Assembly (NCBI GenBank): GCA_017431625.1 | Contig: JAFRKQ010000031.1 | Location: forward strand, 1-52,770 | Length of the DNA: 52,770 nt | Reading direction: 5' to 3' | From: a bacterium | GTDB taxonomy: Bacteria > Patescibacteriota > Microgenomatia > UBA1400 > PJMF01 | Part shown: positions 5,572 to 44,488 of the stretch, piece after piece | How positions within the stretch are numbered: position 1 is the stretch's first letter | Layout: each line of letters starts with the position of its first letter | Program-made: the position numbers and the translations under genes | The notes under the pieces: generated by a model | Told to the model about the DNA's origin: nothing | The model's input: the letters and a program-made list of their open reading frames with translations, nothing else | The model's database searches: none

Positions 5572-5641
5572 TCTTTGCCCGCGCTCGATAGAGCGCGGGC
5601 AAAGAACGAAACGAAATAAAAAAAGTATTAAGACTGCAAAG
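5572..5641 (-). terminator. Conserved cassette 3' trailer and 15-bp GC hairpin (copy A)
   Basis: After the stop: CTTTGCAGTCT..TTATTTCGTTTCGT, then TCTTTGCCCGCGCTC-4nt-GAGCGCGGGCAAAGA followed by a U tract. Confidence 0.8.
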
Positions 5642-6757
5642 TTAATTAAGCCGAGTGATGCGGGCAGCACCATGGCCAATTTTGGCACAATCAGCAGTAG
5701 GCACTTCTTGCGCACAAGTATTACTAATAGTGAGCGTGGCGCTGTCAGTTGACTCCGGACATTCATGACAAGTCATATGTTTAGTGACATCACCAAGACT
5801 AATAAGATTGGACGAGCCAATATACCCAGAGCCGCCACCACCGGAAGTATAAGCCGAGCCACCCCCACCATACCAACCACCACCGCCACCAGCGCCGTCT
5901 TCAGAAATAGGATAGCCATTGCCTCCTTGACCAAAGACACCTGATGGTTGACCAGCATTAGTGCAAGCATGCGGATTACCGGTCACCCCACCGGCCGTCT
6001 GGCTACCACCGATAGCACCGCATTCAGGTCTACCGGTCACAATCGGCGATACCCCCTGATAGCCACCACCGCTGGCACCGTAGCTAACATAAGAGATACC
6101 ATTGCCGGCGCCACCACCAGCAACAACAAGAATTTCCCGAGAAATATTCAAGCCAGCAGTATCTTTATATGCAGACAAAGTACTTAAAACTCCGGGTACA
6201 GTCGCGATGTGAGTCGCCCCACCACCAGAGCCTTCTTTTCTGGTTTTGTTTAAACTTGGAAAAGTATTGCCCCGACCATATGCCGCTCCACCACCATTGT
6301 AAGTAATCGGAGCAAAAAACTCGCTGCCAGGGATATTGCCGCCAACACCAATGCCAGCCTCACCCACTACTACCCAAAAAGCACTACTGTTCTCTGGCAC
6401 AAACACACCAGTAGCATAACCGCCATAGCCACCCCGACCAGCGCTACCAGGACCTCCCTGTGCACCCCACACCTCCAACTGATAAGTGCTCCCGGCGCAA
6501 GTGAAAAATTTTTGCTGGCCACCTGTATACTCAAATGTCTTGCTCTCGCCAATCTCTAACTCATCGCAGGCTGGTCGCATTGCTATGTACTGATTGGTAC
6601 CCACCTTCACAAACTGAAACTCCCCCAATTGGACGATTTTGCCAACCGGCACATCTTTAGGTTTCATGGTTTTATTGCCAGAAGCCGCTTGACTGACTGT
6701 CACCATCAGGATAAGAAAAATTGCCAGCAAAAAGATCCGCCCAAATACTCTGGACAT
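5642..6757 (-). CDS. Secreted glycine-rich domain protein (cassette A)
   Basis: Signal peptide; shared AASGNKT..FVKVGTNQY module; LEVWGAQGG, GGGATHIA, LVVAGGGAG, GGGGGWYGGG, GHGAARIT motifs; SD GAAAGG. Confidence 0.9.
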   Translation of the reverse strand: MSRVFGRIFLLAIFLILMVTVSQAASGNKTMKPKDVPVGKIVQLGEFQFVKVGTNQYIAMRPACDELEIGESKTFEYTGGQQKFFTCAGSTYQLEVWGAQGGPGSAGRGGYGGYATGVFVPENSSAFWVVVGEAGIGVGGNIPGSEFFAPITYNGGGAAYGRGNTFPSLNKTRKEGSGGGATHIATVPGVLSTLSAYKDTAGLNISREILVVAGGGAGNGISYVSYGASGGGYQGVSPIVTGRPECGAIGGSQTAGGVTGNPHACTNAGQPSGVFGQGGNGYPISEDGAGGGGGWYGGGGSAYTSGGGGSGYIGSSNLISLGDVTKHMTCHECPESTDSATLTISNTCAQEVPTADCAKIGHGAARITRLN

Positions 6758-7052
6758 GGTTTCCTTTCGTCTTGTCTATGTATTCCGGGTTGGTCGCCTC
6801 CACTTTTAGTAGCTACTAAAAGTGGGCGATACAAGAACTGTCGTTCTCCCGGTGACCTAACTAATACACAGAGGTAGAAAGGAAAAATTATGCACTAGAA
6901 CCGGGTAAAGTATCTCCCACTTTATCGCGTGCACAATTCCAAAGCTTCTTCATCTCTGCTCCGTTGTCCAAGGACTCAGCAACAACCAACTTGTCATTCA
7001 TCCTCAAAATTTCACTCAGACTCCTTTCTCTACTCCTGTATAAGTTAGGTCA
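6758..7052 (-). ncRNA. Putative structured 5' leader RNA of cassette A (~295 nt)
   Basis: ~31-nt imperfect inverted repeat 6853-6883 / 7022-7052 starting 6 nt after TATAAT (7059-7064); perfect 26-bp palindrome at 6800-6825; further hairpins. Confidence 0.6.
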
Positions 7053-7092
7053 ACAATCATTATATCATGGTTTTCACTTTTTGAGAAAGCAC

Positions 7093-7208
7093 TTTTACCG
7101 CATTTTTTGCGCGAATAATTGGTAATCACTTGTACGCCTCCTGGACTCACAAGATAAAATTACACCTATCAATCAAGATATTTTTGTACGCCTTTGAGGC
7201 TCACAAAA
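7093..7208. repeat. Dispersed repeat family 2, full 116-bp copy
   Basis: Aligns without gaps to 18864-18979; ends in TTTTGTACGCCTTTGAGGCTCACAAAA. Confidence 0.85.
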
Positions 7209-7211
7209 GAC

Positions 7212-8579
7212 TCACCCCACCAGCGTGCCGGCGGGTACACGCGCGTCCACCTCAAAACGTTGGGGCGCCGCTCCTGGCACTTCCACGGCCAAAATCATCC
7301 CCTCACTGACACTCTCGCCCATCTTGCGCGGCGGAATATTGGTGACGTAGACCAAATTCTTGCCGGTGAAGTCCTCTGGCGTATACCAGGCGCGCAGCGC
7401 CGAACAAATCGTGCGCGTACCCAAGGGACCAAAGTCAATCGTCTGGACAATGAGTTTATTGCTCCACGCCGGCGCTTCAGCCTTGAGCACGTGACCCACT
7501 CGCAGCTCCAGCTTGAGAAAATCATCAAAACTCACCACCGGACGCGCCTCGCCCAACATCCTTTCGGGCGAGACAAAATCCGCGCTCAGCCCCAAGGCCG
7601 CTTTGGCTTTGGCTACGGTCATATTGGCGACCAGCCGTGCCCGCGCCGCGCCATCATTCAGGATTTTTTGCACCTCCAGCGGATGCGCTTGCAAATACGC
7701 ATACCGCTCCCGGATCGGGGCAAAAAACTTCTGATGCGCCGCCAGCAGCTTTTGTTTGACCTCCACGTCGCCCACCGTGCCCGCCTGATAGCGCGCTTTC
7801 AAAGCCTCCACTTCATCCTTGTCGTCATTCCACAGCTGGTGATAAAGAAAAATTGGGTTGCCCTCCACATGCCCGGGATCAGTCGCCTTTTGGCGTGTGG
7901 GATCAGTATAGCAGCTCATGATTTGCTTTTCAATGATTTTATAGTCGTCAAAAATCCCAATGATATTGCCCAAAGACTTACTCATTTTGCGCTCGCCATC
8001 AGTGCCAATAATTTTGCCAATACTTTTGTCAATCAGCGGTTGTGGCAGTTTAAAAACTTTTTTTCCAGTTTTTTTATTAAAATTCTCTGCGATGTCACGG
8101 GCTATTTCCAAATGTTGCTTTTGGTCTACCCCCACTGGCACTCCGTCAGCATTGTAAGCCAAAATGTCCGCTGCCATCAAAATCGGATAATTAAAAAGCC
8201 CCATGTTAATATTGTCGGTGTCCACGCCTTTTTCCAATTTGTCTTTGTAAGCGTGCATGCGCTTCATCTGTCCCAAACCCACAAAATTGGTCAAGATTGT
8301 CTCTAGCTCACAATGAGCCGACACCTGTGATTGACGAAAAAAAACGAAATTGTCGCCCTCAATCCCACAAGCCAAATACTGCAACACTACATTTTGGATA
8401 TTGTGAGCCAGTACCTTGGCGTCTTGGATCGTCGTGAGCGCGTGTAAATCCGAAACAAAACAATAAACCTGCACTTCTGCTTGTCCTTGCTGCACCAGTG
8501 GCCGCAGCGCCCCAAAATAATTACCAATGTGTAAGTTGTCACCGCTAGGCGTCACGCCCGTCAAAATCGTCTTGCTCAT
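7212..8579 (-). CDS. trpS: Tryptophanyl-tRNA synthetase with C-terminal OB-fold tRNA-binding domain
   Basis: TGVTPSG, HIGN, YPILMAADIL, PVGVDQKQH, KMSKS; C-terminal FDDFLKLELRVG...NIPPRKMG..SEGMILA. Confidence 0.95.
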   Translation of the reverse strand: MSKTILTGVTPSGDNLHIGNYFGALRPLVQQGQAEVQVYCFVSDLHALTTIQDAKVLAHNIQNVVLQYLACGIEGDNFVFFRQSQVSAHCELETILTNFVGLGQMKRMHAYKDKLEKGVDTDNINMGLFNYPILMAADILAYNADGVPVGVDQKQHLEIARDIAENFNKKTGKKVFKLPQPLIDKSIGKIIGTDGERKMSKSLGNIIGIFDDYKIIEKQIMSCYTDPTRQKATDPGHVEGNPIFLYHQLWNDDKDEVEALKARYQAGTVGDVEVKQKLLAAHQKFFAPIRERYAYLQAHPLEVQKILNDGAARARLVANMTVAKAKAALGLSADFVSPERMLGEARPVVSFDDFLKLELRVGHVLKAEAPAWSNKLIVQTIDFGPLGTRTICSALRAWYTPEDFTGKNLVYVTNIPPRKMGESVSEGMILAVEVPGAAPQRFEVDARVPAGTLVG

Positions 8580-8601
8580 ATGGGCTATTGTAACACAAAA
8601 A

Positions 8602-9747
8602 CTATCTGCTGGAGCCAGCAAATTGGGTGGAGTTTTGTGATCGCAAATATCGGTAAGAAACCAGCAATAATAACCCCAAATACCAATAAGTACCAGTAGA
8701 AATCAGCCACGCCGGTATTCGCTGACTCACTACATTGGCATTGTCAAAATGTAATTGCAATAGTAGCCAGGAAATTCCCAGCCACCACCACTGACGATCA
8801 AAACTTAAAATCGCCACCGGATACAGATACACCATATAATGCGGCCAAATCGGTGCGCGTGCCATCAAACCTATCACCAAAAGCATCAAAGGCGGTATAA
8901 CTGTCAATTTTCGCTCACGCCACGACCAAAAAAGCCACCATCCATACCACCAGCCGGCCCAGGCCAAAGCCACCCATTCCCACAGACTACTGGCCCCAGC
9001 CAATCTCGCCAAAGCCGATGACAATGATTGATCATAATAATTGTCCGCACTCACACCATAAATATTGAGCGTGGGTGCCACCCGTGTTGCGTATTGCCAA
9101 CTCAAAGCCGGGGTTAAAAGTGAGTACACCGCTGTCGCGACCATAAATGCACAAACTACTCGCCACTGTTTTTTGACCACAAAATAGGGCACCATAAAAA
9201 TCGGCATGACTTTCAGTCCTGTCGCCAAAGCCAAAAATATCCCCGCCAAAACGGACTTTTGCCGCCACTGCCAACAGTAAAGTGCTAGCATCACCAAAAA
9301 TATCACTAGCAGATTGATCTGCCCCATCCCCAGATTAAACTTAAAACTAAAAGTCTGCATCCCCAAGGCTGTCACTACCGCCCACCGTGCCCACGTGACC
9401 GGCCGATCAAGAAGGCTTAATGTCAAATAAATCATCGCGCCAAAAAAGACATAACCACTCAACACCCACACGCCGACTGCCACGTCACGAGGCACATAAG
9501 TCAAAGGTCGCATCAACACTAGCGCCAGTGGAGGATAAAAAAATGATAAAGCCGGCCCATAGCCCAAATCTTGATAAGGATCCCCACCCTCACGCCATAC
9601 CCGCGCCGCCTGCAAATAAATATCCACATCCAAGGGCCACTGAGTAGGTTTGAGGGTAGCAAAAACTTTAGTGGTCTGTCCAACACTCAGCACTAACAGA
9701 AAGGTTGCAATTATTTCTCGCCAGCTATTTTTGAGTCTTTGCCACAT
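8602..9747 (-). CDS. GT87/DUF2029-type membrane glycosyltransferase
   Basis: DVDIYLQAA...GGDPY...FFYPP, GQIN, LATGLKVMP, WPHY motifs; many TM segments; start reset to MWQRLK. Confidence 0.85.
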   Translation of the reverse strand: MWQRLKNSWREIIATFLLVLSVGQTTKVFATLKPTQWPLDVDIYLQAARVWREGGDPYQDLGYGPALSFFYPPLALVLMRPLTYVPRDVAVGVWVLSGYVFFGAMIYLTLSLLDRPVTWARWAVVTALGMQTFSFKFNLGMGQINLLVIFLVMLALYCWQWRQKSVLAGIFLALATGLKVMPIFMVPYFVVKKQWRVVCAFMVATAVYSLLTPALSWQYATRVAPTLNIYGVSADNYYDQSLSSALARLAGASSLWEWVALAWAGWWYGWWLFWSWRERKLTVIPPLMLLVIGLMARAPIWPHYMVYLYPVAILSFDRQWWWLGISWLLLQLHFDNANVVSQRIPAWLISTGTYWYLGLLLLVSYRYLRSQNSTQFAGSSR

Positions 9748-9880
9748 GACGCGTATTATATCACACGCAAATGAACCACACTCCAGCAATCACAATTATT
9801 TGTTCTCAAATTGTACAAATTTTTTATACAATAATTACCAGCCTTGTGTACACAATTTTTACTCAATATTTCGACTAATT

Positions 9881-9922
9881 TGTTAAACATTTGTTAAACG
9901 AATGTTTAACAAATATTAAACG
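9881..9922. repeat. 11-bp-phased TGTTWAACA array (4 units)
   Basis: Units start at 9881, 9892, 9903, 9914. Confidence 0.85.
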
Positions 9923-10053
9923 TCTATATCTGGTTTTAAATAACACACAAAATACACAAATTTACAGACAAAAAACATAAAATAATTTTACGAGTCTAAG
10001 CACAAAAAATAAAGTGCCTTTTGAGCACAAATTTTGTATAATTTTGACAAGAA

Positions 10054-10800
10054 TTAAGACGCCTCACTAGTGGCTGCTGGCGTCAAAATCGACATATAAC
10101 TTAGCGTCAGATCATCAATGTCCACACCCACCAAAATACCTAGCAATTCTCCGCGAGCATTAAAAACCGCCCCGCCCGAATCGCCCAAATTGGCCTCCAG
10201 ACGCACTGGCCAGACACTGATTTGCGGATAGCGGATATTACCCCAAGTCTCTTGCAGTGCCAGAGTGTGCAATCCCTTGATCACTCGTCCAGAGACAGGT
10301 TGGTCGTCGTCCAAATAGGCCAGCACGGCCTCGCCCGTGGCCACCCTTTGCGCTATCGGTAGCGCGGGTAATGTAGTGAGACTATTGATGTGGCCCCAAG
10401 CTAGATCATGAGCTAAATCGCTGCGTATCGGCAAAACTGGCCACAAGCCCAATTGCTCATGATAAAAAAACAGGTCTGGCCGACTCATCACGTGAGCCGC
10501 CGATACCACCGTCTGACCATCCAACATGACAGCACGACCCAAAATCCGCCAATGGCCATCAGCCAAAAGTGTTGATGCTGCGGCCGACTGGGCGTCATCA
10601 TCAGCCGCCACCACTATCCACCCCAAATATGATTGTTCCGACTCCGCCACAAAACTACTACCCGGAGTCCGCAACAGCCACTCTGGCAACTGCCCCGCAT
10701 CGTGAAGATGCGTTGCCAGCCACACCAAGCTCACTATCACCAACAACACCCCCAAAATCTGTCCGGTAAGCTGTAGGTAGCGACCTAAGTAGTTTGTCAT
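10054..10800 (-). CDS. Membrane-anchored trypsin-like serine protease
   Basis: SAAHV, HDLA, GDSGG catalytic-triad motifs; N-terminal TM helix. Confidence 0.85.
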   Translation of the reverse strand: MTNYLGRYLQLTGQILGVLLVIVSLVWLATHLHDAGQLPEWLLRTPGSSFVAESEQSYLGWIVVAADDDAQSAAASTLLADGHWRILGRAVMLDGQTVVSAAHVMSRPDLFFYHEQLGLWPVLPIRSDLAHDLAWGHINSLTTLPALPIAQRVATGEAVLAYLDDDQPVSGRVIKGLHTLALQETWGNIRYPQISVWPVRLEANLGDSGGAVFNARGELLGILVGVDIDDLTLSYMSILTPAATSEAS

Positions 10801-10807
10801 TACTCCT

Positions 10808-12088
10808 CTAAAAAAGCGTCAGCGCCCGCTCTAATATTTCGTCCGTTTCTGTTTCGTAATCTTGCTCCACCTCCACATCAGGCTCAATGCCTTCTTTATT
10901 CAGCCATTGCCCGCCAGGCAACATCCACTGGGCCACCGTGACATTGAGAGCCGCGTCATTGATTAAGTCAATGCGTTCTTGGATCAAGCCTTTGCCAAAA
11001 GTCTTTGTCCCAACAAGGGTGGTACGTTTATTATCGCGCAAAGCCCCGGCCACAATTTCCGAAGACGAAGCACTGCCACCATTGACCAGAGTGATTACTT
11101 TGGTCTTGGTCAAACGCCCCCCGCCACTGGCACGATAGTCATTACTGCGGGTTTTGCCTTTTTCGGTCACCACCACCCCATCATCAATAAACTCGCTGGC
11201 CACATGAATCGCCTCACTAAAATAGCCACCAGGATTATTACGCAAATCAAGAATCACTCCAGCCAGATTTTCCCGATTTACCAATTGATCCACGGCCAGA
11301 TTCCACTCAGTAAAGGTGCGCTCACTAAAGCGAGACAGCTTCAAGTGAGCTACTTGGCGGCCATCGGGCAAAGTCAAATATTCCAGTTTGACCGAATCCA
11401 CCTTGATTTCTTCACGAGTAATAGTGACCTCAAAAGGCTCACCATTGTTATAGTTTTCGCGGTAAATCATGATCGTGACCGTTGTGCCAATTTTGCCGCG
11501 CAAAACTTCTTGAGCGCGATTGAGCGTCCAGCCATAAGTGTCTTCATCAATACCAGCTTTTTCGTCTTTGACGTGAACAATGATGTCACCAGCCAGAAGG
11601 CCAGCGCGCTCTGCCGGTGTCCCATTCAAAGGCGCACCCACGCCGACCAGCGAGTCAATGTAACTCAACTCCACACCAATGCCGCCAAAACTCCCACTCA
11701 AGTCACCCTCGCTGATGGCATTACTCACTGGCGGAATGTACATGGTATAGGGATCACCCAATGAGGCCACCATGCCACCAATCGCCCCGTCTACCATTTG
11801 TTGGGCGTCCATTTCTTCCGACTTGTAGTAGCGACTTTCTAGTAATTCCCACACGCCCCAAAAAAGATTGAAGTCAACGGCTTTGTAGCGAGCCGGCTGC
11901 CCATCATAAGACAAAGTATAGACATCACGGTATTGCTTTTCCAAAAAAGGCACGTGCACACCAAAAAACGTACCCGTGCCCGCAAAATAATAACCGCCCA
12001 CGCCGCCAATAGCCAGCAACAAAATTGCGGTGATGATTTTTCCCAACAATTCTTTGCTTTTTATTGATCGATCCAGCGGCATATCCAT
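10808..12088 (-). CDS. ctpA: S41 family carboxyl-terminal processing protease
   Basis: LGDPYT, PDZ domain (GGIGVEL..PAERAGL..GD), LDLRNNPGG, SASSSEI, TFGKG, GIEPD. Confidence 0.92.
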   Translation of the reverse strand: MDMPLDRSIKSKELLGKIITAILLLAIGGVGGYYFAGTGTFFGVHVPFLEKQYRDVYTLSYDGQPARYKAVDFNLFWGVWELLESRYYKSEEMDAQQMVDGAIGGMVASLGDPYTMYIPPVSNAISEGDLSGSFGGIGVELSYIDSLVGVGAPLNGTPAERAGLLAGDIIVHVKDEKAGIDEDTYGWTLNRAQEVLRGKIGTTVTIMIYRENYNNGEPFEVTITREEIKVDSVKLEYLTLPDGRQVAHLKLSRFSERTFTEWNLAVDQLVNRENLAGVILDLRNNPGGYFSEAIHVASEFIDDGVVVTEKGKTRSNDYRASGGGRLTKTKVITLVNGGSASSSEIVAGALRDNKRTTLVGTKTFGKGLIQERIDLINDAALNVTVAQWMLPGGQWLNKEGIEPDVEVEQDYETETDEILERALTLF

Positions 12089-12133
12089 ATCTCTATTTTA
12101 CCAATCGACTGTCAAATCAACGTCAAAAAAAAC

Positions 12134-12373
12134 CTACGCGTTTTGCACAAATGGCAATAAAGCCAAATGGCGCGCGCGCTTGATCTCTATGGCCAGCTGA
12201 CGTTGCTGTTTTTGGGTCAAACCAGTTTTGACCCGAGGCATGATCATGCCCTGACCCGTGACGAAGTTTTTGAGCACCTCGACATTTTTGTAACTAAAAA
12301 CATATTTGTGATCAATTGCTGATTTAGCAGCTTTGGTCACTTTTGGAGTTAAATCTCTTTTGGCTTTTCTCAT
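12134..12373 (-). CDS. rpsR: 30S ribosomal protein S18
   Basis: [18 protein letters not shown]...[20 protein letters not shown]. Confidence 0.97.
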
Positions 12374-12413
12374 AAATTCTTTCTAAATTGGCCCTCATGG
12401 CCTCAAAAACGGT

Positions 12414-12884
12414 TTAAAAAGGGATATCGCTTTCATCGTCTGTCGGCAAATCTTCAGCCGGTTCTTGCCCCTCTGACGACTCCTCAGTGGGATTCTCACT
12501 ATTGGGCAAAGGTGGCACTTCATTGTTACTCGCGCCAGCATCTCCTTGACGAGACGAAAGAATAATCATATTCTCCACCACGATCTCTGTTGTTTTACGC
12601 TTGACACCGTCATTTCCTTGCCAGTCGCGTGTTTGTAGACGTCCCTCGGCGTAAATTTTGGTGCCTTTATGCAAAAAACTCTGACAAATGCCAGCTAACT
12701 TTGACCAGACGACCAGACTGTGATACTCAACACTGCTTTGTTTTTCGCCATTGCCATTGGCCCATTCCCTATTGGTCGCCAAACCAAAAGAACACACTTG
12801 AGTACCGCTAGGAGTATAACGACACTCAGGGTCGCGGGTGAGATTACCAATTAACTGCACTTTATTCAAAGATCTTACCGACAT
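12414..12884 (-). CDS. ssb: Single-stranded DNA-binding protein
   Basis: LNKVQLIGNLTRDPE, EGRLQTR, C-terminal DIPF; lies between rpsF and rpsR. Confidence 0.97.
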   Translation of the reverse strand: MSVRSLNKVQLIGNLTRDPECRYTPSGTQVCSFGLATNREWANGNGEKQSSVEYHSLVVWSKLAGICQSFLHKGTKIYAEGRLQTRDWQGNDGVKRKTTEIVVENMIILSSRQGDAGASNNEVPPLPNSENPTEESSEGQEPAEDLPTDDESDIPF

Positions 12885-12957
12885 GATTTTTTCCCTTTTT
12901 ACCGATTCTTTTTCTGACTATAAATTATAAATTACCTAATTTACAAAATTTTTATTG

Positions 12958-13314
12958 TTATTTGGCTGACGATTCTTCCATATTTGCCGCTTGTGGCGCC
13001 ACTTCCACCAGCAGACTGCGGATAACCTCGCGCTTAAGCTCAATACTACGGATCAAGTCACGCGCTTTTGAAGCCGGCATTTTGACAATCAAATGCGTGT
13101 AAAGTGCCTCATTGTAGCGTTTGCCATCTTTTTTGATCACATAGGCAAGCTCTTTTTTACCCCAGTCCACGGTCTCCACGATCTCACCTTCATGACGACC
13201 TACCAAGGAGACAATTTCATCCTTGAGCGAATTAACCTCAGCCGTAGTGTAGGCGGGACCAAGCAAATAAGTAATCTCATACTGACGGATTTCATCTTGC
13301 TTTTGTACCAGCAT
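12958..13314 (-). CDS. rpsF: 30S ribosomal protein S6
   Basis: RQYEITYLL, WGKKELAYVIKK, VIRSLLV; SD GAGG before ATG 13314; rpsF-ssb-rpsR synteny. Confidence 0.93.
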   Translation of the reverse strand: MLVQKQDEIRQYEITYLLGPAYTTAEVNSLKDEIVSLVGRHEGEIVETVDWGKKELAYVIKKDGKRYNEALYTHLIVKMPASKARDLIRSIELKREVIRSLLVEVAPQAANMEESSAK

Positions 13315-13431
13315 TTTTCCTCTCTCGAGAGCCAAACTCTCTACTTACTATTACTCTGCCAGTTCGTTTCTCTGGACCCGGCCAACGCCGAGCGAACAAG
13401 CTGACACTATTATACCACACAATTGACCAAA

Positions 13432-13462
13432 AACCCCGGCCAATTTGACCGGGGTTGATTTT
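13432..13462. terminator. Intrinsic terminator
   Basis: AACCCCGG-ccaatttga-CCGGGGTT hairpin with T tract downstream of the 517-aa gene. Confidence 0.7.
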
Positions 13463-13475
13463 TCAGGCTCTTTTT

Positions 13476-15029
13476 TTAAAGAGAAGCGGTGATGGTGTAG
13501 GTAATTTCGTTATCATACACACCAGCATTGTTTTGCGCATCGACCACTAAGCGGTAACAAAAGTCATAGTAGTCACCCTCGGCAATGAGGTCACTGGAGG
13601 CGGCCACCGGTGGCTCATTATCAGAGGTAGAAGGAATCAGACCGACAATACCCGTACGATCGCGAGTAGCGAGACGAGAATACTTGTTACCTTCAAAGAT
13701 AGAATTGACTGTAGGCTTATTCTTGATACCGCTTTCTTGTTGGCCAGTATAGCGATTGACGGCTACCGTATAACCAAGACCGGTTTGGTTGCCATCAGCC
13801 CAGGCAGCTGAGGTATAAGGGGTGACATTGGGCCAACCAAAATTGGGAATACAATCACGGTTAATAGTGGTGTTGTTAATCAAGCCTGCGTCCGCATAGC
13901 AAGTGCTATTGTAGTCATTAGTATTACTAATATCATTAAGCGTGTCCTCACGGCGCATATTGCGATTCTGTGTCACGGTCACTTTGTAGCCATGGGCCAC
14001 CGAGGAGCTGACGAAAAGTCGTTGATTGGCATCTACTGGCACACCAACTGTTGCGGCACCGTAATCAATCTTCAAAGGCGTTGTAGAGACTGTAGGTTTA
14101 TTGGCGCATTTGCTCTCAGGATCACCGGCCTCGACACCATCAATGCGGAACATTAGCTGGTATTCTACCTTAGCCTTCACCAACACGTCCTGCATGATCG
14201 TACTGATCAAAACGTCAATGTCACTCAACATATTGGCAGACATGGGATTGGTGCCATCGAACATCTGAATCTTACCAGGAATAGTGATCGCCTCATTAAG
14301 GCTGGCATTGATTTGAGCGGCTGGATTAATGAGATCCTTGATGACAATATTGTAACTGCTGTCATCATTATTTTGAGCATACTCTCCACCACGATTGGGA
14401 GTCCCCGTGTAGGTACACGTGTAAGCGAGGTAACGAATATATTTGCCCGCTTGACCATCAGGAGTCGTGTTATCCAAACTGCTTGCCAGATAGCGATCAT
14501 TTTCCACGTCATAAAGAACCACCGTCGGGTGACCATCATTGGCAGCCGTAAAGGCGGCCGTGCCATTGCTAGCCGTCGGGCAAGTGAAGGTTGATGAATT
14601 CACGCCATTCTTGACAGTAAAGACTTTTTCGTTCGCCCGACCATTGCTCGCGCTCGCTGACTCCGTCGCCGTCGCTACCAAAACACGGATCGAACCATTG
14701 GCCACCGCCGTCTCAATCGGGAAACCAACCGTCAAGTCAGTCGTCACCAAATTGGTACGATCATACTCGTCAGTCATCACGTTGTAAGTAGTCGAGATCG
14801 CCGTCGAGCCAGTGGTCGCCGAACCCGTAGCCGCTATCGAAGCACCGTTATTAGCAGTTGACGTCGGGCCAGTCGCCTGGATGCCATTCGTATTTGGCAA
14901 ACCGGTATTATTTTGCGCCCAAATTGGATGTGCACTTACCGCCGTCACGAGTGACAAGACAGCAATGGCGCCCAGCACGGACATTTTTTGCTTTGTCATT
15001 GTTTCTTTCATCTTCTTTCTCATTCCCAT
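13476..15029 (-). CDS. Secreted beta-rich surface protein
   Basis: Signal peptide, T/N/S-rich body, C-terminal AGVYDNEITYTITAS strand; exact start uncertain. Confidence 0.8.
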   Translation of the reverse strand: MGMRKKMKETMTKQKMSVLGAIAVLSLVTAVSAHPIWAQNNTGLPNTNGIQATGPTSTANNGASIAATGSATTGSTAISTTYNVMTDEYDRTNLVTTDLTVGFPIETAVANGSIRVLVATATESASASNGRANEKVFTVKNGVNSSTFTCPTASNGTAAFTAANDGHPTVVLYDVENDRYLASSLDNTTPDGQAGKYIRYLAYTCTYTGTPNRGGEYAQNNDDSSYNIVIKDLINPAAQINASLNEAITIPGKIQMFDGTNPMSANMLSDIDVLISTIMQDVLVKAKVEYQLMFRIDGVEAGDPESKCANKPTVSTTPLKIDYGAATVGVPVDANQRLFVSSSVAHGYKVTVTQNRNMRREDTLNDISNTNDYNSTCYADAGLINNTTINRDCIPNFGWPNVTPYTSAAWADGNQTGLGYTVAVNRYTGQQESGIKNKPTVNSIFEGNKYSRLATRDRTGIVGLIPSTSDNEPPVAASSDLIAEGDYYDFCYRLVVDAQNNAGVYDNEITYTITASL

Positions 15030-15042
15030 TCATTTGACTAAC

Positions 15043-16092
15043 TTATACGCGCGCTCGCACCAAGCCGATCAAATCTTTGATCTGAGCTTGACTCAAGCGG
15101 CCATCATCACGCAAGGTAATCTCGCGCAACAACTCGCCAGATTCCAAATAAGGATTCTCAATCATTTTTTGGATCTTGACTTCTTCTCTTTTTTGCACGC
15201 GGTCAATCAAGCGCTGACGTTGTGCTGTTGCCAGCCGACCATCAGAGCGGGCGGCCACGATATTAAGCAATTCTCTGGTATCCATGTACTGACTATCCAC
15301 GTAAGCACGCACAATTTCTTCTTCGCGTTGTTGTACCGCCCCAATCAGATCTTTACGCTGACTCTCAGACAACTCGCCGGTGGCAATTTTATCCAAAAGT
15401 TGTGAAGCTGACACCAAGCGATTGTCAATCATCTCGCGGATTTTGACTTCTTCACGATTTTGCAAAATTTCAATCAATTCTTTTTGCTGGCCAGGAGTAA
15501 TTTCGGCCATTGAGATCTGTCCCAAAAGATCAGGTGCTTGAGTGTTGGGGTTGGCGATCATTTTCTTGAGCTTTTCGTACTCGCGCTTTTGGACTTCACC
15601 TACCAAGGTGGCGATCTGATCAGGAGTCAAGCGACCATCAAAGCGCGCCCCAATTTGACGCAAAAGTTCACGCGAGGATAAGTACTCATTGGCAATCATC
15701 TTGCGCAACTTTTCCTCTTCTACCTTTTGCTCTTCAGTGGTGCGGAAAACATCTTTTTTGGGCTTACCTACAAAACTAGCTTGATCCCGTTTTTGATTGA
15801 TACCCATACCAAAATCTTTTTGCTTGGGCACAAAGTCCTGGTTGGGTTTACTCTCGGGCATCATGGGCGCTTGAGGACGTGGCACCACTTGTGTTGTCTG
15901 AGCGCTCTCGCGAGCGGACTCACTGCGAGCTGGGCGAGCACTGACTGGGGATTGGCTGGGACGAGCCGAGTTGTTAAATTGAGGTGGAGCCATCGGAGGC
16001 AAGAGATCATCACCTGCTCCGACAGGTCGACCCTGCATTGCTCCGGTGAAACTATTTGCTTTGAAATCATCAGCCATATATACTTTCTTCAA
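15043..16092 (-). CDS. Hypothetical protein with five 43-47-aa helical tandem repeats
   Basis: Disordered P/Q-rich N-terminus, then repeats EEEKxRKMIxNxYLxSxELLxxI..(DG)RL..Q..L...VQKR. Confidence 0.85.
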   Translation of the reverse strand: MKKVYMADDFKANSFTGAMQGRPVGAGDDLLPPMAPPQFNNSARPSQSPVSARPARSESARESAQTTQVVPRPQAPMMPESKPNQDFVPKQKDFGMGINQKRDQASFVGKPKKDVFRTTEEQKVEEEKLRKMIANEYLSSRELLRQIGARFDGRLTPDQIATLVGEVQKREYEKLKKMIANPNTQAPDLLGQISMAEITPGQQKELIEILQNREEVKIREMIDNRLVSASQLLDKIATGELSESQRKDLIGAVQQREEEIVRAYVDSQYMDTRELLNIVAARSDGRLATAQRQRLIDRVQKREEVKIQKMIENPYLESGELLREITLRDDGRLSQAQIKDLIGLVRARV

Positions 16093-16228
16093 TTTTACAT
16101 TAATTTTCTCTCATTATACACCCGCAAAATAAATTTTGCAAGTATCCGCATTGTAAACTATTATCTGCCAAAATGCAAGCGGCAATTTTTCTCCAGCTTT
16201 TACCTCTAGCGTGTGGTATAATACCCAC

Positions 16229-17329
16229 ATGTCACTCTCAATTGGAATTGTTGGTCTACCAAATGTGGGCAAATCCACCCTCTTTAACGCTTTGCTCAAA
16301 AGTGAACAAGCCCTTGCCGCCAATTATCCTTTTGCCACCATCGAACCCAATGTCGGCATCGCCGCCGTCCCCGATGAACGCCTGGCCGCTCTCGCTCCCA
16401 TTGTCCACACCACCACCATCAAACCCGCCACTATTGAATTTGTCGATATTGCTGGGCTTGTCAAAGGTGCCAGTCAAGGTGAAGGCCTCGGCAATAAATT
16501 CCTCTCTCATATCAAGGCCACCAGCGCCATCGCTCACGTTTTGCGCGTTTTTACTGACCCAGACATTATTCGCGACACCCCAGTCGATCCCTTAGCTGAT
16601 CTCGCTACTGTTCGCACCGAGCTCCAGCTGGCCGACCTCGAAATCTTAAGCCGTCAGACGCCACCCAAAGGAAGCGTCAGTCCCGCGGCCACACAACGTT
16701 TTGATTTGATCCAAAAATTCACTGCTACCCTCAATGAGGGCCACAATCTGAGCGACCGCATCAAGACTTTAAGCGACGACGAGCAGACGCTGGCCCGTCA
16801 AATCGCTACCGAGCTCAATCTGCTCACCCACAAAAGTGAACTTTTTGTCCTCAATGTTGATGAAAATGATCTGTCTCAAGCTGCTAACATTACTACCGAC
16901 TGGAGCCAAAAGTTACATGTTCCTGCCAAACAAATCATCGTCGTTTCCGCCAAAGTCGAGGCAGAGCTGGCGAGCCTGAGCGAACAGGAGGCTCGCGACT
17001 ATCTCCAGACACTGGGTCTGAGTGAATCAGGTCTTGATCGCCTCGCTCGTGCCGCTTATCAGACACTCCAGCTTCAATCCTTCTTGACTGCCGGCGAGCT
17101 CGAGGTCAAAGCGTGGACGATCCCTCAAGGGACCACCGCCGTCAATGCCGCTGGAGTCATTCACACTGATTTTATCAAGACTTTCATTAAGGCAAAGGTA
17201 GTCACCTTTGTGGACTTTGTCGCTTTAGGCGGCTGGAAAGCTGCCGCCGACGCGGGCAAAGTCCGCCTCGAGGGTCGCGACTATGTCATGCAGCCCGATG
17301 ACATTGTGGAGTTTGTTTTGGGCAAATAA
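16229..17329 (+). CDS. ychF: Redox-regulated ATPase YchF (Obg family)
   Basis: GIVGLPNVGKSTLFNAL, ANYPFATIEPN, DIAGLVKGAS, IHTDF, RLEGRDYVMQ. Confidence 0.97.
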   Translation: MSLSIGIVGLPNVGKSTLFNALLKSEQALAANYPFATIEPNVGIAAVPDERLAALAPIVHTTTIKPATIEFVDIAGLVKGASQGEGLGNKFLSHIKATSAIAHVLRVFTDPDIIRDTPVDPLADLATVRTELQLADLEILSRQTPPKGSVSPAATQRFDLIQKFTATLNEGHNLSDRIKTLSDDEQTLARQIATELNLLTHKSELFVLNVDENDLSQAANITTDWSQKLHVPAKQIIVVSAKVEAELASLSEQEARDYLQTLGLSESGLDRLARAAYQTLQLQSFLTAGELEVKAWTIPQGTTAVNAAGVIHTDFIKTFIKAKVVTFVDFVALGGWKAAADAGKVRLEGRDYVMQPDDIVEFVLGK

Positions 17330-17395
17330 TTTTGTGGTTTTGTCACGCGGCTGTAAATTTCTGTACTTTGTTTGTCACCAAAAACCAGGCGTTTT

Positions 17396-17437
17396 TGTTA
17401 AACGTTTGTTAAACAAATGTTAAACAGCTGTTTAACA
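17396..17437. repeat. 11-bp-phased TGTTWAACA array (4 units)
   Basis: Units at 17396, 17407, 17418, 17429; left flank matches the reverse complement of 25785-25842. Confidence 0.85.
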
Positions 17438-17445
17438 AGGCATAT

Positions 17446-17512
17446 TCTTTGCCCGCGCTCCAAGAGCGCGGGCAAAGACGAAACGAAATAAGAAACTTAC
17501 TAGACTACAAAC
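17446..17512 (-). terminator. Conserved cassette 3' trailer and 15-bp GC hairpin (copy B)
   Basis: Same stem sequence as copy A (TCTTTGCCCGCGCTC/GAGCGCGGGCAAAGA) preceded by TTATTTCGTTTCG. Confidence 0.8.
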
Positions 17513-18643: not shown

Positions 18644-18823
18644 ATTGCCTTTCGTTTTGTTTGTCTGTCTGCGGGCTTTTTCTCGATCCACGAGAGCGTC
18701 CCCGGCTTCACGCTGAGTCTAAGGGGAAACAGTAATGAAATTATACGAGAACACTCTCACCAGCATTACTGTACCACATTGTACTGCATTTCCCAGGCAG
18801 CGCTGTAAGTCCCCTTAGACTCA
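18644..18823 (-). ncRNA. Putative structured 5' leader RNA of cassette B (~180 nt)
   Basis: Perfect 14-bp inverted repeat 18714-18727 / 18810-18823 starting 6 nt after TATAAT (18830-18835); nested stem 18729-18737 / 18764-18772. Confidence 0.6.
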
Positions 18824-18863
18824 CTGATAATTATACCACAAGAAAGTCTTTATCAGCGAGCAG

Positions 18864-18979
18864 TTTTACCGCAATTTTTGCGTGAATAATTGACGGTTGT
18901 TTGTACGCCTTTTGTACGCACAAGATAAAATAACAGCCATACACCAAAATATTTTTGTACGCCTTTGAGGCTCACAAAA
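18864..18979. repeat. Dispersed repeat family 2, full 116-bp copy
   Basis: Ungapped homolog of 7093-7208. Confidence 0.85.
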
Positions 18980-19023
18980 ATATTATCCTCACACACCAAG
19001 ATTTTTTAGCAATATGTCTAGTA

Positions 19024-32869: not shown

Positions 32870-32943
32870 GGGTCAGTAGCTCAGTCGGTTAGAGCATCTG
32901 CCTCTTAAGCAGAGTGTCCCGGGTTCGAGTCCCGGCTGACCCA
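32870..32943 (+). tRNA. tRNA-Lys (CTT)
   Basis: GGGTCAG/CTGACCC acceptor stem, anticodon arm TCTGC-CT-CTT-AA-GCAGA, TTCGA loop; CCA not encoded. Confidence 0.95.
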
Positions 32944-33003
32944 CCGATTGTCGGCAACCATAGTTGTCGTATTGTTGGTTCTTTGTTTTTGATTAATACA
33001 GAC

Positions 33004-33079
33004 CGGAGCGTAGCGCAGATGGTAGCGCGCTGTGTTCGGAACGCAGAGGTCGCAGGTTCAAGTCCTGTCGCTCCGACCA
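33004..33079 (+). tRNA. tRNA-Pro (CGG)
   Basis: CGGAGCG/CGCTCCG acceptor, anticodon CGG, encoded CCA. Confidence 0.95.
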
Positions 33080-37805: not shown

Positions 37806-37840
37806 GTTGGTTGCTCGACCTTAATTAATGTATACATTTT

Positions 37841-38019: not shown

Positions 38020-39453
38020 GTGCACAAAAAACTATTCGCAATGAGCTTTGTGATTGCCTGGGCTAGCATTGGCCTGACACATTCGGTACATGCGGCCACT
38101 TACACCACACCCGCGATCCCTACTACTACCTATCCGGTAGAACAGCTGTCGTGGATTGTGACCAACCTCACGGATGTATCGCTCATCGTTCCTGAATATC
38201 AGACCAAAGCCACCAGCGATGAATCTGACCACTGGCAAGTGTTGTCGGATTTCAACTGTCAAGAGGACGAGCAGCTACTTAAATGTCGGGCCGCTATTCC
38301 CCCGTTACTTCAAGATATTTTGCAAGTACGCCTCACCTATCCCGACACTGCTTATCTGCAAACTTTCAATCTCACCCTCAGCCAAGACCAAAGCGAGATG
38401 CCCACTCACGAGCACGAACAGATTTATTACTCAGATTTCAAAATTCTTGATCCTAACTTGGAAGCAACAACTCTCTCTTGGCGTGAACAAGCCTTGACCT
38501 CAACTCCGCGCGATCGCTTAATTGTCCAAACCAGAGCCAGTCATGACGGCGTTTCCTGGACACCCTGGCAGGGCAATGCGAAGGCGCTAACGCTCACCGA
38601 TCTCAATCCCGAGGCTACCGCGGGGAGTCGCCCAGGACACTTGGATCTTTATGGCGTACCCACCAGTGGTTATGACTACCTACTGGCGACTTATCCCGAT
38701 GACAGCCGCCTCTACACCCTCGCTAGTCCTGCCGCCTTTGGCGCCGATGAAGCCGCGGCTTTTGCCCAATTGACACTTGCCCTAGAGAGCGTGGCCGATT
38801 TGCACCTCGGACAAGAAATCATGATCAGTGAAACTGTTGGTGCCGATACTTATCATCTCCGTGGCCTTATAAGCGACAAAAAAGACTCTACCAACGAAAT
38901 CTCAGTCTTCTCGTGGCAAGGAGCCATTCCGATCCAAAATGAGGCCATTTGCGGGACAGGAATGACCTTTTGTTACTCGCCGACCGCAACTATTCAGCCC
39001 CTGGTGACCAGTGTTTTCCCCACTCCCGAGACAAATGACGAGACTGATTACCCACAGCTGACTTTGGCTATCACTAGCAGTCGTGACGACCCCACTCCTG
39101 TCACCTACACGCCAGTACTAGAATCACTGGAGTTTTATCGTTATCTGGCTCCTACTTGTCTGGAATACTATCAGGACACTGCTGACAGTGCCACGAGCTC
39201 GGCCTCTCTCGCCTCCAGTTGTAAGACCCAAGCTATTGCTCTGCCAAACTCTCAAGAACACCAACCCCAGCAACTCCAATATCGGATCATTTATGGTTTT
39301 GCGGGTGATGTGGAGATCAGCGAGGTCTTTCTTCACCAAAACACCCCTGCCAATTACGCTTCCAGTAGCAATATTATGACCAATAGTAGCTATCGCTTGC
39401 GCGGCGGCAAAACCTTCCAGGCTGGCAATTCTCGGCCGTATTTCTGGCACTAA
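38020..39453 (+). CDS. Secreted hypothetical protein
   Basis: Signal peptide ending VHA; beta-rich body; C-terminus YRLRGGKTFQAGNSRPYFWH; hairpin ATGCTCTGACC-tcttg-GGTCAGAGCAT follows. Confidence 0.8.
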   Translation: MHKKLFAMSFVIAWASIGLTHSVHAATYTTPAIPTTTYPVEQLSWIVTNLTDVSLIVPEYQTKATSDESDHWQVLSDFNCQEDEQLLKCRAAIPPLLQDILQVRLTYPDTAYLQTFNLTLSQDQSEMPTHEHEQIYYSDFKILDPNLEATTLSWREQALTSTPRDRLIVQTRASHDGVSWTPWQGNAKALTLTDLNPEATAGSRPGHLDLYGVPTSGYDYLLATYPDDSRLYTLASPAAFGADEAAAFAQLTLALESVADLHLGQEIMISETVGADTYHLRGLISDKKDSTNEISVFSWQGAIPIQNEAICGTGMTFCYSPTATIQPLVTSVFPTPETNDETDYPQLTLAITSSRDDPTPVTYTPVLESLEFYRYLAPTCLEYYQDTADSATSSASLASSCKTQAIALPNSQEHQPQQLQYRIIYGFAGDVEISEVFLHQNTPANYASSSNIMTNSSYRLRGGKTFQAGNSRPYFWH

Positions 39454-40619: not shown

Positions 40620-40643
40620 AAGACACCTTTTCTTATTCATGTT

Positions 40644-41396: not shown

Positions 41397-41424
41397 AAGA
41401 GGTATTATACCACGGCCCGCAAAT

Positions 41425-41622: not shown

Positions 41623-41624
41623 GG

Positions 41625-42944: not shown

Positions 42945-42966
42945 AATCGATATTATACAACAGATT

Positions 42967-43088
42967 CACTACTTTTTGGCACGAGTTTTTTGGTGAAAAC
43001 ACTACTTTTTGGTAGGAGTTTTTTGAGTAAAACACTACTTTTCCATAGGAGTTTTTTGACAAAAATGCATCAAATTGGTAGAAATTTT
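42967..43088. repeat. 33-bp tandem array (~4 units), right flank of the AAA ATPase gene
   Basis: Units at 42967, 43000, 43033, 43066; same orientation as the left array. Confidence 0.9.
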
Positions 43089-43190
43089 AATAATGGGTGT
43101 AATTATATTGATAGATACAGGTTTTTAATATTTGTTTACTTGTAGAAAAACTCCTACTTGCAGCTGGCAAAAATGTGGTATAATAGACAA

Positions 43191-43439
43191 CGAAACCAAC
43201 AATAATTAGTTGCAGAAGGGAGAAGCTGAGAGATAAGGATGAAGTTGCCAAACCAATAAAAACATAGTTTAGATGGGAATCGAATGCAAAAAGAAGCGGG
43301 GGACGCAATTTGGCTCTTAGCAAAGCATTTGATTTAGGTAGCCTTATAGGCTTCTCTTCAGACTAGTTTTGTTGGTTTCGGGTCAGAAAGTCGCCCGTTT
43401 CTTTTTGCCTCAAACCGCTTGCAACCACAGAAAGGTGCT
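43191..43439 (+). ncRNA. Putative structured 5' leader RNA of cassette C (~250 nt)
   Basis: Arms 43191-43238 / 43342-43380 pair with G-U wobbles and start 6 nt after TATAAT (43179-43184); second pairing ~43287-43303 with 43392-43409. Confidence 0.6.
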
Positions 43440-44417
43440 ATGACGAACTGGTCACGATGGCTTATCTTTTTGGTAATGCTAACAACATATGTCTCTCCCA
43501 TCTGCATGAAAATAGGCGCGCACAGTGTCATCCACGCTGCCAAGGGCAACACATCCATGAAGCTCAAAGATGTGGCGCTGGGCAAAGTGGTACAGGTGGG
43601 AGAACTCAAATTCGTCAAGGTAGGAGATAATCAATATTTGGCCACCAATACATGTCCGCCTGGAAAAATGCTCGCTCCATTAGCTCACGATTGTGTAACG
43701 ATTCAGGAGTATGGTTGTAGCCAGCCAATTGGTACCATGCAAACTTGGAATGGTTGTACTAGCGCGAGTACACCAACAGGCACTAATTATTCCCTAGATA
43801 TCTGTCTAATGGATGAGCGCGACGGCAAGACTTATCAAGTGCGCAAATTTGCCGATGGTCATTGCTGGATGGTAACTAATTTAGCCTATGGACCTGGGTG
43901 TCAAAAAACCTCATTTAATAAAAGCAATGTAAGTCAAGTAGATGTAGTTGGCCCTGGACTTTATGGTGAATGTCGTTGGGATGAAACCAAGTCACTCAGC
44001 CTTACCTATAAATATGGCTATATGTACAATTGGCAAGCGCTGATACAAGATCCTCAAGCTTATTATGGTAATAATTATCAGCCATCAGAACCAGTACAAG
44101 GCATTTGCCCACATGGCTGGCATGTACCGCGAGGCAATACTAACAGCGAATATAAAGCTTTATATGAAGCTATTGGTCAACAAATATCATTCTTCTCTAC
44201 CGGTGGCAATTTTTTAATCGCTTTAGCCGGTCAAATTAGAGACACTAATGGGAACATTATAAGTCAAGACGCAAATGTTCAATTGTTCACTTCTACTCAG
44301 GGCAGTGGTAATAAAACCAATGCTGCTTATTATTGGTGGTTGCCACAAAGAAATTATGAATACTTAGACGATGGTAAATATTTTGGCGGTGCCCTGCGTT
44401 GTATTCAGGATTATTAA
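43440..44417 (+). CDS. Secreted FISUMP (Fib_succ_major) domain protein (cassette C)
   Basis: Shared AAKGN..FVKVGDNQY module; DERDGKTY, CWMVTNL, YGYMYNW, GICPHGWHVP, ALRCI; SD GAAAGG. Confidence 0.88.
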   Translation: MTNWSRWLIFLVMLTTYVSPICMKIGAHSVIHAAKGNTSMKLKDVALGKVVQVGELKFVKVGDNQYLATNTCPPGKMLAPLAHDCVTIQEYGCSQPIGTMQTWNGCTSASTPTGTNYSLDICLMDERDGKTYQVRKFADGHCWMVTNLAYGPGCQKTSFNKSNVSQVDVVGPGLYGECRWDETKSLSLTYKYGYMYNWQALIQDPQAYYGNNYQPSEPVQGICPHGWHVPRGNTNSEYKALYEAIGQQISFFSTGGNFLIALAGQIRDTNGNIISQDANVQLFTSTQGSGNKTNAAYYWWLPQRNYEYLDDGKYFGGALRCIQDY

Positions 44418-44488
44418 CTTTGCAGTCTAACAACTTTTCTTATTTCGTTTCGTTCGCTCCCACACTCAGGTGTAGGAGCGAAAATTTT
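44418..44488 (+). terminator. Conserved cassette 3' trailer and hairpin (copy C)
   Basis: CTTTGCAGTCT..TTTCTTATTTCGTTTCG then TTCGCTCC..GGAGCGAA hairpin. Confidence 0.75.

Follow-up and report, generated by a model that had tools for sequence, protein, structure and literature searches.

Why should three genes that lie far apart in one small bacterial genome begin alike, stand between the same non-coding flanks and yet not all carry the same C-terminal domain? The question is raised by contig JAFRKQ010000031.1 of assembly GCA_017431625.1, a 52,770-nt stretch (the window) from a member of the Patescibacteriota (Microgenomatia; UBA1400; PJMF01), in which gene A (5642–6757, minus strand, 371 aa), gene B (17513–18643, minus strand, 376 aa) and gene C (43440–44417, plus strand, 325 aa) each encode a signal peptide and a shared module of ~40 residues. 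A sequence-only reading had picked out these genes; its coordinates prove correct, the strands are added here, and the three module peptides that it quoted are all present and alignable. On balance, we consider it probable that A, B and C belong to a lineage-specific family of exported surface adhesins housed in a shared expression and export cassette and reshuffled by recombination between copies.

Behind its signal peptide, A carries the module (6560–6688; AASGNKTMKPKDV...NQYIA plus the first Cys), a Cys-containing linker and a glycine-rich domain (GRD) like that of ALK and LTK, of the KHMTC subtype. B has the module at 18449–18574, followed by a C-x13-C loop, a GRD of the same subtype and the tail QLSVYLGI; its longest frame opens at GTG 18691, and the start shared by the family is ATG 18643, with GAAAGG 6 nt upstream. 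C combines a signal peptide bearing a 16-aa insert with the module (43536–43661), a C-x12-C loop and a FISUMP domain, which is C-type-lectin-like. The proposed division into Gly-rich and FISUMP passengers holds in profile searches, where every score exceeds its cut-off: PF12810 (ALK_LTK_GRD) matches A at E 2.3e-27 (97.0 bits) and B at E 2.5e-30 (106.7 bits; gathering cut-off 24.5), and C is matched by PF09603 (E 1.8e-10, 41.8 bits; cut-off 33.9) and by TIGR02145 (62.9 bits; cut-off 41.65).

Across the genome of this organism (G000; 1.137 Mb in 32 contigs, 96% complete), a profile of the module recovers 15 open reading frames (ORFs) among 12,493 six-frame ORFs, dispersed over 12 contigs. Nine have a single GRD, a tenth is frameshifted, one is a FISUMP and GRD fusion (651 aa), one has three GRDs (1446–1481 aa) and, besides the fusion, three are of FISUMP type, two of them cut by contig ends. 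The GRD passengers fall into three subtypes, KHMTC, ISGHTGC and AGDQ. The idea of a dispersed modular family with a constant N-terminus and differing passengers thus extends from three genes to the whole genome, of which the family takes 21.2 kb from stop to stop, or 1.9% by summed coordinates. Its members share one build: an extended -10 element, a leader of 180–300 nt, GAAAGG, a signal peptide, a 36-aa beta module, a Cys loop (C-x12-14-C across the family), the passenger, a trailer of ~31 nt and a GC hairpin. The signal peptides have no lipobox Cys. Besides the module genes, the genome holds a GRD gene without module (contig C17, 57967–59274, minus strand) and one 55-aa GRD fragment. The C17 gene, whose product has a transmembrane segment at its N-terminus, lacks both leader and trailer, which indicates that module and flanks travel together whatever the passenger. 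As a separate observation, a frameshift divides one member (L006, contig C24, 149570–150800) into two ORFs, 206 and 263 aa long; leader and trailer are retained.

The 3′ trailer is the most regular of the flanks. In A (5606–5641, minus), B (17478–17512, minus) and C (44418–44453, plus), sequence alignment and a trailer profile place it directly after the stop codon as a shared block, as had been claimed, and its layout is stop codon, TTTGCAGTCT, ~7 nt, TTTCTTATTTCGTTTCGT and a GC hairpin. The 14-mer TTATTTCGTTTCGT occurs in seven exact copies in the 1.14-Mb genome, each just after the stop of a family gene, where ~0.01 would be expected by chance. An nhmmer trailer profile gives 16 matches in the genome at E ≤ 0.0017, 13 of them behind module genes, so that module and trailer co-occur in all 13 of the module genes whose 3′ end lies on a contig; the genome-wide co-occurrence check suggested along with the original claim therefore comes out in its favor. 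Of the remaining three matches, two belong to C-terminal fragments of genes and the third is a lone trailer that follows a promoter-like box; two further trailers were recognized by motif, one ending a reverse transcriptase operon and one in a passenger-less cassette. Two of these forms, the passenger-less cassette and the lone trailer, are worth describing in their own right. One (L134, contig C19, ~38590–38900, minus) consists of a C-type (type II) leader, Shine–Dalgarno sequence and the first ~14 signal-peptide codons fused to trailer and hairpin, with no passenger. The other (L131, contig C30, ~27140–27270) is the lone trailer, which lies in an intergenic region 25 nt behind TGTGATATAAT, has both a hairpin and a T run, and could be either a small RNA gene of ~95 nt or a deletion relic.

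Is the trailer alike in all copies through recent copying, or is it maintained? Mean pairwise identity of the trailer core is 0.84 (66 pairs, 31 columns), against 0.41 at fourfold sites of the module (444/1075; 15 paralogs), and this difference argues that the trailer is held by selection on its nucleotides. The codons of the C-terminal tail vary freely at synonymous sites, and the arms of the hairpin behind the trailer vary among copies and stay paired. A related genome (G003) has its own trailer (...CTCTTTCTACTTTTTAGATG...), of which a 20-mer occurs in 22 exact copies, versus 0 for a reversed control; 20 of these copies stand immediately behind family genes and two at contig starts, and of the 26 family genes whose 3′ end is complete, 24 were found to have the trailer. 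A third variant is present in G001, and a CTTTCT-TTT-type pyrimidine core is common to the three species. The beginning of the coding sequence behaves similarly: synonymous-site identity over the first 13 codons, compared with the module, is 0.73 versus 0.42 in G000 and 0.91 versus 0.47 in G003, and a conserved first-codon block, GGGCGNNTCTTTTTGGCGGC, is common to both species. These alignments demonstrate that both the trailer and the first 13 codons are under selection as nucleotide sequence. We also note that the first 39 nt of the coding sequences (for example 6719–6757, minus) can form a small hairpin in G000, GUCCAG..UUGGGC after the AUG, with the variable codons 4–5 as its loop. Two other roles for the trailer, as a coding extension or as an antisense promoter, were considered and rejected: its frame is broken by indels, and the -10-like letters fall in its variable part. 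Since the trailer is kept as nucleotides and also ends a reverse transcriptase operon, a role in the transcript is favored over one as a recombination site.

The 5′ leader offers an independent view of the cassette. Folding supports the claim of a long, stem-closed leader, giving A, B and C each a long 5′-closing helix. The type I leader of A (6758–7052, minus), defined by folding, covariation and a covariance model (R1), has a closing helix P1 around internal helices, then two 3′ hairpins and an unpaired GAAAGG. The leader of B (18644–18822, minus) folds with a 13-bp 5′ closing helix (GAGUCUAAGGGGA / UCCCCUUAGACUC) and resembles that of the paralog L008, and the type II leader of C (43188–43439, plus) folds with a long closing helix (CGAAACCAACAA... 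/ ...UUGUUGGUUUCG) and is common to the paralog L003 and a passenger-less relic on contig C19. Shuffle z-scores of the folds are -5.7 (A), -2.7 (B) and -2.3 (C). The Shine–Dalgarno sequence GAAAGG, predicted in all three, does lie 6–7 nt before each ATG, and it is unpaired in each fold.

Type I leaders precede A and three paralogs, with 71–89% identity to the other copies, those of G002 and G003 included. RNAalifold places 71 pairs in their alignment, 25 of them changed on both sides, with 93.3% of cells paired; shuffled alignments give 11.8 ± 2.3 double-changed pairs (0 of 500 as high) and slid controls give 3–9. In the closing helix, 12 of 17 pairs have changes on both sides. The type I leader is a structured RNA under covariation. 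Its core model R1 finds four copies in G000, three in G003 and one in G002, that is, in three of 61 genomes, all of the same genus, with no matches in 57 other genera; one of the G003 matches precedes a gene with a FISUMP-like passenger, so labelled by motif and not by profile scan. Although it resembles the cis-regulatory RNAs of Rfam in structure and covariation, no Rfam family matches leader or trailer at gathering score, and E-value mode on the A leader returns two chance-level matches. The other leader types differ in sequence and group C with L003; L004, L005 and L007; B with L008; and L006 with L011. The 5′ closing helix was found by folding in A, B and C and by eye in L007. The same leader type is found with different passenger subtypes.

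An apparent 37-aa upstream ORF in the type I leader was dismissed, because compensatory base pairing accounts for its seemingly synonymous changes; its Shine–Dalgarno-like GAAAGGAG lies inside the closing helix, and frame-breaking indels in other leader types also contradict it.

With start sites and trailers both conserved as nucleotides, one may ask whether they pair. The trailer could be a riboregulator, either a cis-acting anti-Shine–Dalgarno element directed at the GAAAGG region or a trans-acting small RNA of the 3′ untranslated region (UTR). The trailer segment UUUCGUUU is complementary to AAACGAAA at several family Shine–Dalgarno sites, the leader of L012 contains a 13/14 reverse complement of the trailer core, the CUUUC-type pyrimidine core is kept in the trailers of all three species, and the lone trailer with its promoter-like site would yield an RNA of ~95 nt. 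Against pairing, the mean predicted duplex energy with family starts, at -11.6 kcal/mol, is no better than the -10.4 kcal/mol for 573 other starts of the genome (Mann–Whitney p = 0.11; 588 genes in all, from crude gene calls), only six of the 22 genome sites of ACGAAAGG lie in the family, so that it is no family-specific signal, and no covariation of the Shine–Dalgarno context with the trailer is evident across species. We therefore hold a riboregulator of this kind to be improbable.

Do the parts of the cassette share one history? In a tree of the GRD core (33 genes), KHMTC (clade support 99), ISGHTGC (98) and the AGDQ pair each mix genes of G000 and G003, and testing rejects a topology that unites the nine G000 genes (p-AU 4.7e-12). 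The module tree shows the opposite pattern: here the G000 genes do group together, with support of 98, and topologies that keep either subtype together are the ones rejected (p 3.4e-4 and 4.2e-7). QLSVYLGI, as the C-terminal tail, occurs with each of the three subtypes in G000, the one genome to have it, and with none of them in G003. Compared along their lengths, these genes thus indicate that the ends evolve in concert within genomes and that the passenger subtypes predate the species split.

One gene is itself a mosaic. Across its leader, from -290 to +20, L005 is 80–98% identical to L004 and 25–50% identical to B; in its module and C-terminal third, at +120 to +260 and +812 to +1030, it is 87–92% and 78–87% identical to B, and the middle of its GRD is ~45% identical to both. 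Two chromosomal neighborhoods are partly shared with G003. A family gene follows RecR in both G000 (B) and G003, the leader types differing, and a synthetase (PF00579) with a conserved 348/356-aa gene accompanies a type I leader and GRD in G000 and a type-I-like leader with a FISUMP-like passenger (again a motif label) in G003. Both neighborhoods are rearranged, so we take them as suggestive and not as strict orthology. Discordant trees, the L005 mosaic, passenger-less relics and altered content at shared neighborhoods bear out the earlier suggestion of exchange to the extent that the ends have been exchanged or homogenized among copies. Copies have also been gained and lost.

Could the copies simply have duplicated and diverged, their ends being alike through selection alone with no exchange? 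The synonymous sites of module and C-terminal tail have diverged, and the G000 genes form a clade of their own inside each GRD subtype, as such a history would predict. It is already hard to hold, and we judge it about as improbable as the riboregulator: module and passenger trees conflict in approximately unbiased (AU) tests, the module, tail and trailer are species-specific across three subtypes older than the species split, L005 is a mosaic, and one leader type occurs with several passenger subtypes.

At the other extreme, the variation could be programmed, with the signal-peptide start and the trailer serving as sites of a dedicated recombinase or of frequent conversion that moves passengers between cassettes now. 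Several observations point that way, namely the relic in which a signal-peptide start is fused to a trailer, the lone trailer behind a promoter-like site, C-terminal fragments with trailers, the L005 mosaic, the excess synonymous conservation exactly at the place of crossover, and contig breaks at family genes. Yet every copy read upstream bears a promoter-like -10 element and a leader, there are no arrays of silent cassettes (the C17 gene and the 55-aa fragment are the only GRD extras), and the trailer also stands behind a reverse transcriptase gene. No recombinase occurs among the scanned window neighbors, and elsewhere no search for one was made. Synonymous sites between copies are near saturation, which implies that exchange is old or rare and not ongoing switching. 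Public contigs from four runs were compared over 5000–19500: two runs cover A and B without differences, and the joints between A and B are partly matching paralog contigs, so that nothing there is distinguishable from cross-matching of paralogs. Programmed variation therefore appears quite unlikely, if marginally less so than the two preceding alternatives, and the sequence-only reading finds partial support: neither dedicated exchange machinery nor silent cassettes were found, the flanks having had no search for recombinase genes.

Similar arrangements are known elsewhere. The Hop/Bab proteins of Helicobacter pylori and the vsp/vlp/vsa proteins of Mycoplasma are paralogous surface families with conserved ends and exchange between copies, which in Mycoplasma include a conserved 5′ UTR and signal peptide. 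The present family is like them in its conserved 5′ region and signal peptide, variable body, concerted ends and mosaics. It differs in that no invertible segments or single expression site were found here, and in its 3′-UTR element, its covarying leader of 200–300 nt and its patescibacterial setting. Two closer identifications were rejected. Phase-variable lipoprotein loci of the Mycoplasma type do not fit, with no lipobox Cys and with dispersed loci that each have a -10-like element. Nor do integron gene cassettes, since the family is spread through the housekeeping genes of 12 contigs, each member with a -10-like element, and the conserved part of the trailer is no imperfect palindrome.

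A reverse transcriptase operon ending in the family trailer raises the further question of whether these proteins are targets of a diversity-generating retroelement. The element in question (L133) occupies 1–2940 of contig C7. Its variable region lies at the contig start and ends in ...GFSVRCLLGN, followed by the template repeat (655–800), an accessory ORF (910–1842), the reverse transcriptase (1770–2867; PF00078, E 2.6e-8) and then the family trailer. Of 17 differences between variable region and template, 16 fall at template adenines. The module gene L010 (contig C28, 5–160) ends in a second version of the variable region, less clean, with 15 mismatches and one gap relative to the template; as L010 stops at a contig edge in this same region, contigs C28 and C7 probably adjoin, the assembly having broken there. 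Judged by its adenine-biased differences, one FISUMP member of the family is a target of the retroelement. One count by Wu et al. 2018 (PMC5758913) lists DUF1566/DUF823/Fib_succ_major as a target category, amounting to 14% of such retroelements.

Within the family, C and four other members bear this domain, and L010 has the variable region, a likeness to the FISUMP/DUF1566 'CLec2' targets such as Legionella LdtA; C differs from these in having no matching template repeat and in an N-terminus that is the family module and not a lipoprotein signal. Template repeat 1 has only two variable-region copies, both at contig ends, with none in the GRD genes, in C or on the window contig, so that A, B and C do not qualify as its targets. 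The 7-kb contig C15 carries a second reverse transcriptase (L136, 172–1326, minus), an accessory ORF and at least six related template- or variable-like segments. To these segments the end of L012 (contig C4) shows 73% identity, with mismatches beyond adenines, and the template-repeat-2 region meets the window only through an unrelated dispersed repeat.

Trailer and hairpin could in principle be recognition elements of the retroelement, comparable to an initiation of mutagenic homing (IMH) site with its downstream hairpin, which would make the whole family its targets. The retroelement does target a family member, and a trailer does stand behind its reverse transcriptase gene. That trailer, however, follows the reverse transcriptase gene and not the variable region, which on C7 has an inverted repeat of its own; the template-repeat search yields the two contig-end copies and none in GRD genes or C; and the second reverse transcriptase gene (C15) has no trailer. 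This explanation is largely refuted, and we give it very little credence.

What would the proteins do? With an alignment of 34 family sequences as input, AlphaFold2 yields a model of A that has a mean predicted local distance difference test (pLDDT) score of 78 and gives the module three short beta strands (residues 41–44, 47–53 and 56–59; pLDDT ~80). All 21 Foldseek matches of this model in the PDB at E ≤ 0.001 are ligand-binding regions of ALK or LTK (best E 5e-8, probability 1.0, TM-scores 0.30–0.43). The likeness to the ALK/LTK GRD, a ligand-binding domain made of TNF-like and polyglycine parts, thus appears both in profile scores and in the Foldseek matches. Unlike those receptors, the proteins here are small, bacterial and exported, with no kinase and no EGF module, the domain is preceded by a lineage-specific beta module, and the TM-scores do not exceed 0.43.

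The module has no counterpart in Pfam: at E ≤ 10, two of the 15 modules have one chance-level match each, to different families, so the possibility that it belongs to a known domain of fixed architecture, which would have told against the earlier reading, is not what we find. A search of the Atlas with the module gave no usable match, a pattern scan over one genome per species gave none, and a word-index search for relatives returned two proteins among five candidates. An exhaustive protein profile search gave 249 matches at E ≤ 0.001. Among the 150 of these listed, 24 are single full-length module matches, which include more distant module and GRD proteins and one protein with another passenger. 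The remaining listed matches repeat over profile positions ~2–21; the three that were read (P0003, P0004 and P0008) are WD40-type repeat proteins, and we took these matches as spurious. The first half of the module profile (ASGxxxTxKLxDVxxGxxV) resembles a WD40 strand pair and matches many times per protein, which inflates such counts. In the same order, the module was found in four of 41 genomes, all of one genus, with 15, 27, 5 and 1 copies, and in none of 37 genomes from 37 other genera searched by profile. The proteins are probably genus-restricted, exported binding proteins displayed at the surface. The A locus occurs in 12 public runs, their type guessed as DNA, mostly labelled gut metagenomes, several from goat or sheep.

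In Clostridioides difficile (Cwp/CWB2) and Bacillus (SLH proteins), one anchoring module serves many domains, and S-layer mRNAs have long stabilizing 5′ UTRs. Our family resembles them in its constant module beside the signal peptide, its unrelated passengers and its long structured leader with a free Shine–Dalgarno sequence; it differs in that the module is ~36 aa with a Cys loop and no Pfam match, and envelope binding is putative. An anchoring role for the module, suggested by this analogy, is conceivable, if somewhat less likely than not.

Together, these observations suggest the following scheme. A Sec signal peptide or signal anchor would export the proteins for surface display, and module and Cys loop may serve all members as a docking or anchoring piece, which would co-evolve with a partner particular to each species. 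Recombination between homologous copies, or gene conversion, with crossovers in the conserved 5′ coding region and 3′ ends, would repeatedly re-pair leaders, modules and passengers into a varied adhesin repertoire. Leader helix, trailer and trailer hairpin would all act in the mRNA, through stability or through common post-transcriptional control by one trans factor, and so co-regulate the family. A bolder version is that leader, signal-peptide start and trailer together form a genus-private RNA 'address', read by one trans factor and doubling as crossover points, which governs 15–28 adhesin genes. We think this unlikely, though less so than any of the alternatives weighed above; if true, it would unite regulation and recombinational variation in one system, of a kind undescribed for the candidate phyla radiation (CPR).

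Several points weigh against the reading of an exchanged, co-expressed adhesin family. The trees cover 33 of 48 family records, with passengers sorted by C-terminal motif beforehand, and leave out FISUMP, frameshifted, multi-GRD, truncated and all G001 members; the module tree rests on 44 columns only. Synteny comes from two neighborhoods, both rearranged, and the genus is represented by four genomes, two of them less than 90% complete. Given the near-saturated synonymous sites, selection may have contributed more than conversion to the likeness of the ends seen today. No clear T tail follows the hairpins of B and C, so 'terminator' is secure for A and some paralogs only. Promoters, transcript ends and the roles of leader and trailer are predictions from the DNA itself. 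Anchoring, finally, is an analogy, because no known family matches the module and no oligomer was detected; a two-copy complex prediction of A residues 24–90 scored 0.01.

To our knowledge, little has been established about how Patescibacteria, which live attached to other cells and have tiny genomes, recognize their partners, and hardly any regulatory RNA has been described in the phylum. This organism devotes ~2% of its 1.1-Mb genome to a single family of exported binding proteins and varies it by three routes: domain types, recombination between copies and retroelement hypermutation. A family varied in this way is a concrete candidate set of host-recognition molecules. It brings with it two new conserved RNA elements, the covarying leader of 200–300 nt and the 3′-UTR tag, which are testable as post-transcriptional signals, and it places the ALK/LTK glycine-rich fold in a further setting, a bacterial one. 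So far the family is confined to one genus, a narrow spread that limits the reach of the result. The domains, the retroelement type and surface-protein families with conserved ends are already known; the module, the covarying leader, the species-specific 3′-UTR tag and the strict association of all of these in one CPR genus are new. Literature searches, mostly at the level of result listings, found no description of the family, leader or trailer.

The promoters of the three genes are less uniform than first described. An extended -10 element (TGnTATAAT) can be read before each of them, as had been proposed, yet a promoter scan called that of A only, at 7059–7087 (minus; TTCTCA-17-TATAAT with TG). 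Those of B (18830–18840, minus) and C (43174–43184, plus), both TGTGGTATAAT, have no -35 match and were recognized by inspection. The 3′ hairpins divide in the same way. For A, the terminator scan, which demands a T run, finds a 15-bp stem followed by one (5572–5605, minus), the only such call among the three. The GC hairpin of B (17447–17477, minus), found by eye, has arms as in A and lacks the T run, and that of C (44455–44481, plus), likewise found by eye, has arms that are unlike those of A and B and yet pair.

Each gene does sit alone among unrelated genes, as first noted. A lies near a PIN-domain gene and a class I W/Y aminoacyl-tRNA synthetase (PF00579); B near RecR and an ORF that we take, without a profile scan, to be the GTPase YchF; and C near an AAA_14/DUF4143 ATPase and a gene with a weak DUF6395 match. 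Rfam at gathering thresholds finds six tRNA genes in the whole window and nothing else (32870–33076, 49174–49646, 51475–51546 and 52607–52678).

Upstream of their promoters, A and B (7099–7200 and 18870–18975, minus strand) share a block with two GGCGTACAA repeats. It contains a palindrome, CGCAAAAA(A/T)TGCG, ~45 nt before the -10 box, which recurs upstream of the paralogs L009 and L005 and may be an operator. A dispersed intergenic palindromic repeat of ~45–57 nt, of the type GTTTAACA..TGTTAAAC, is present in the window at 17359–17415, 44522–44604 and 9868–9959 and at more than 40 other sites in the genome; copies adjoin the far side of the B and C hairpins.

A last repeat is seen in G003, where a hairpin-rich element of ~55–75 nt (CTCCCC..GGGGAG, a second hairpin, GGGGAGG) is inserted in frame between signal peptide and module and occurs again between stop codon and trailer. 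Its pattern has 18 matches, nearly all of them at contig starts or at family loci, among which are L014, L018, L024, L027, L028, L037, L041 and L042. The 16-aa insert in the signal peptide of C (43480–43535) looks like a decayed copy of this element.

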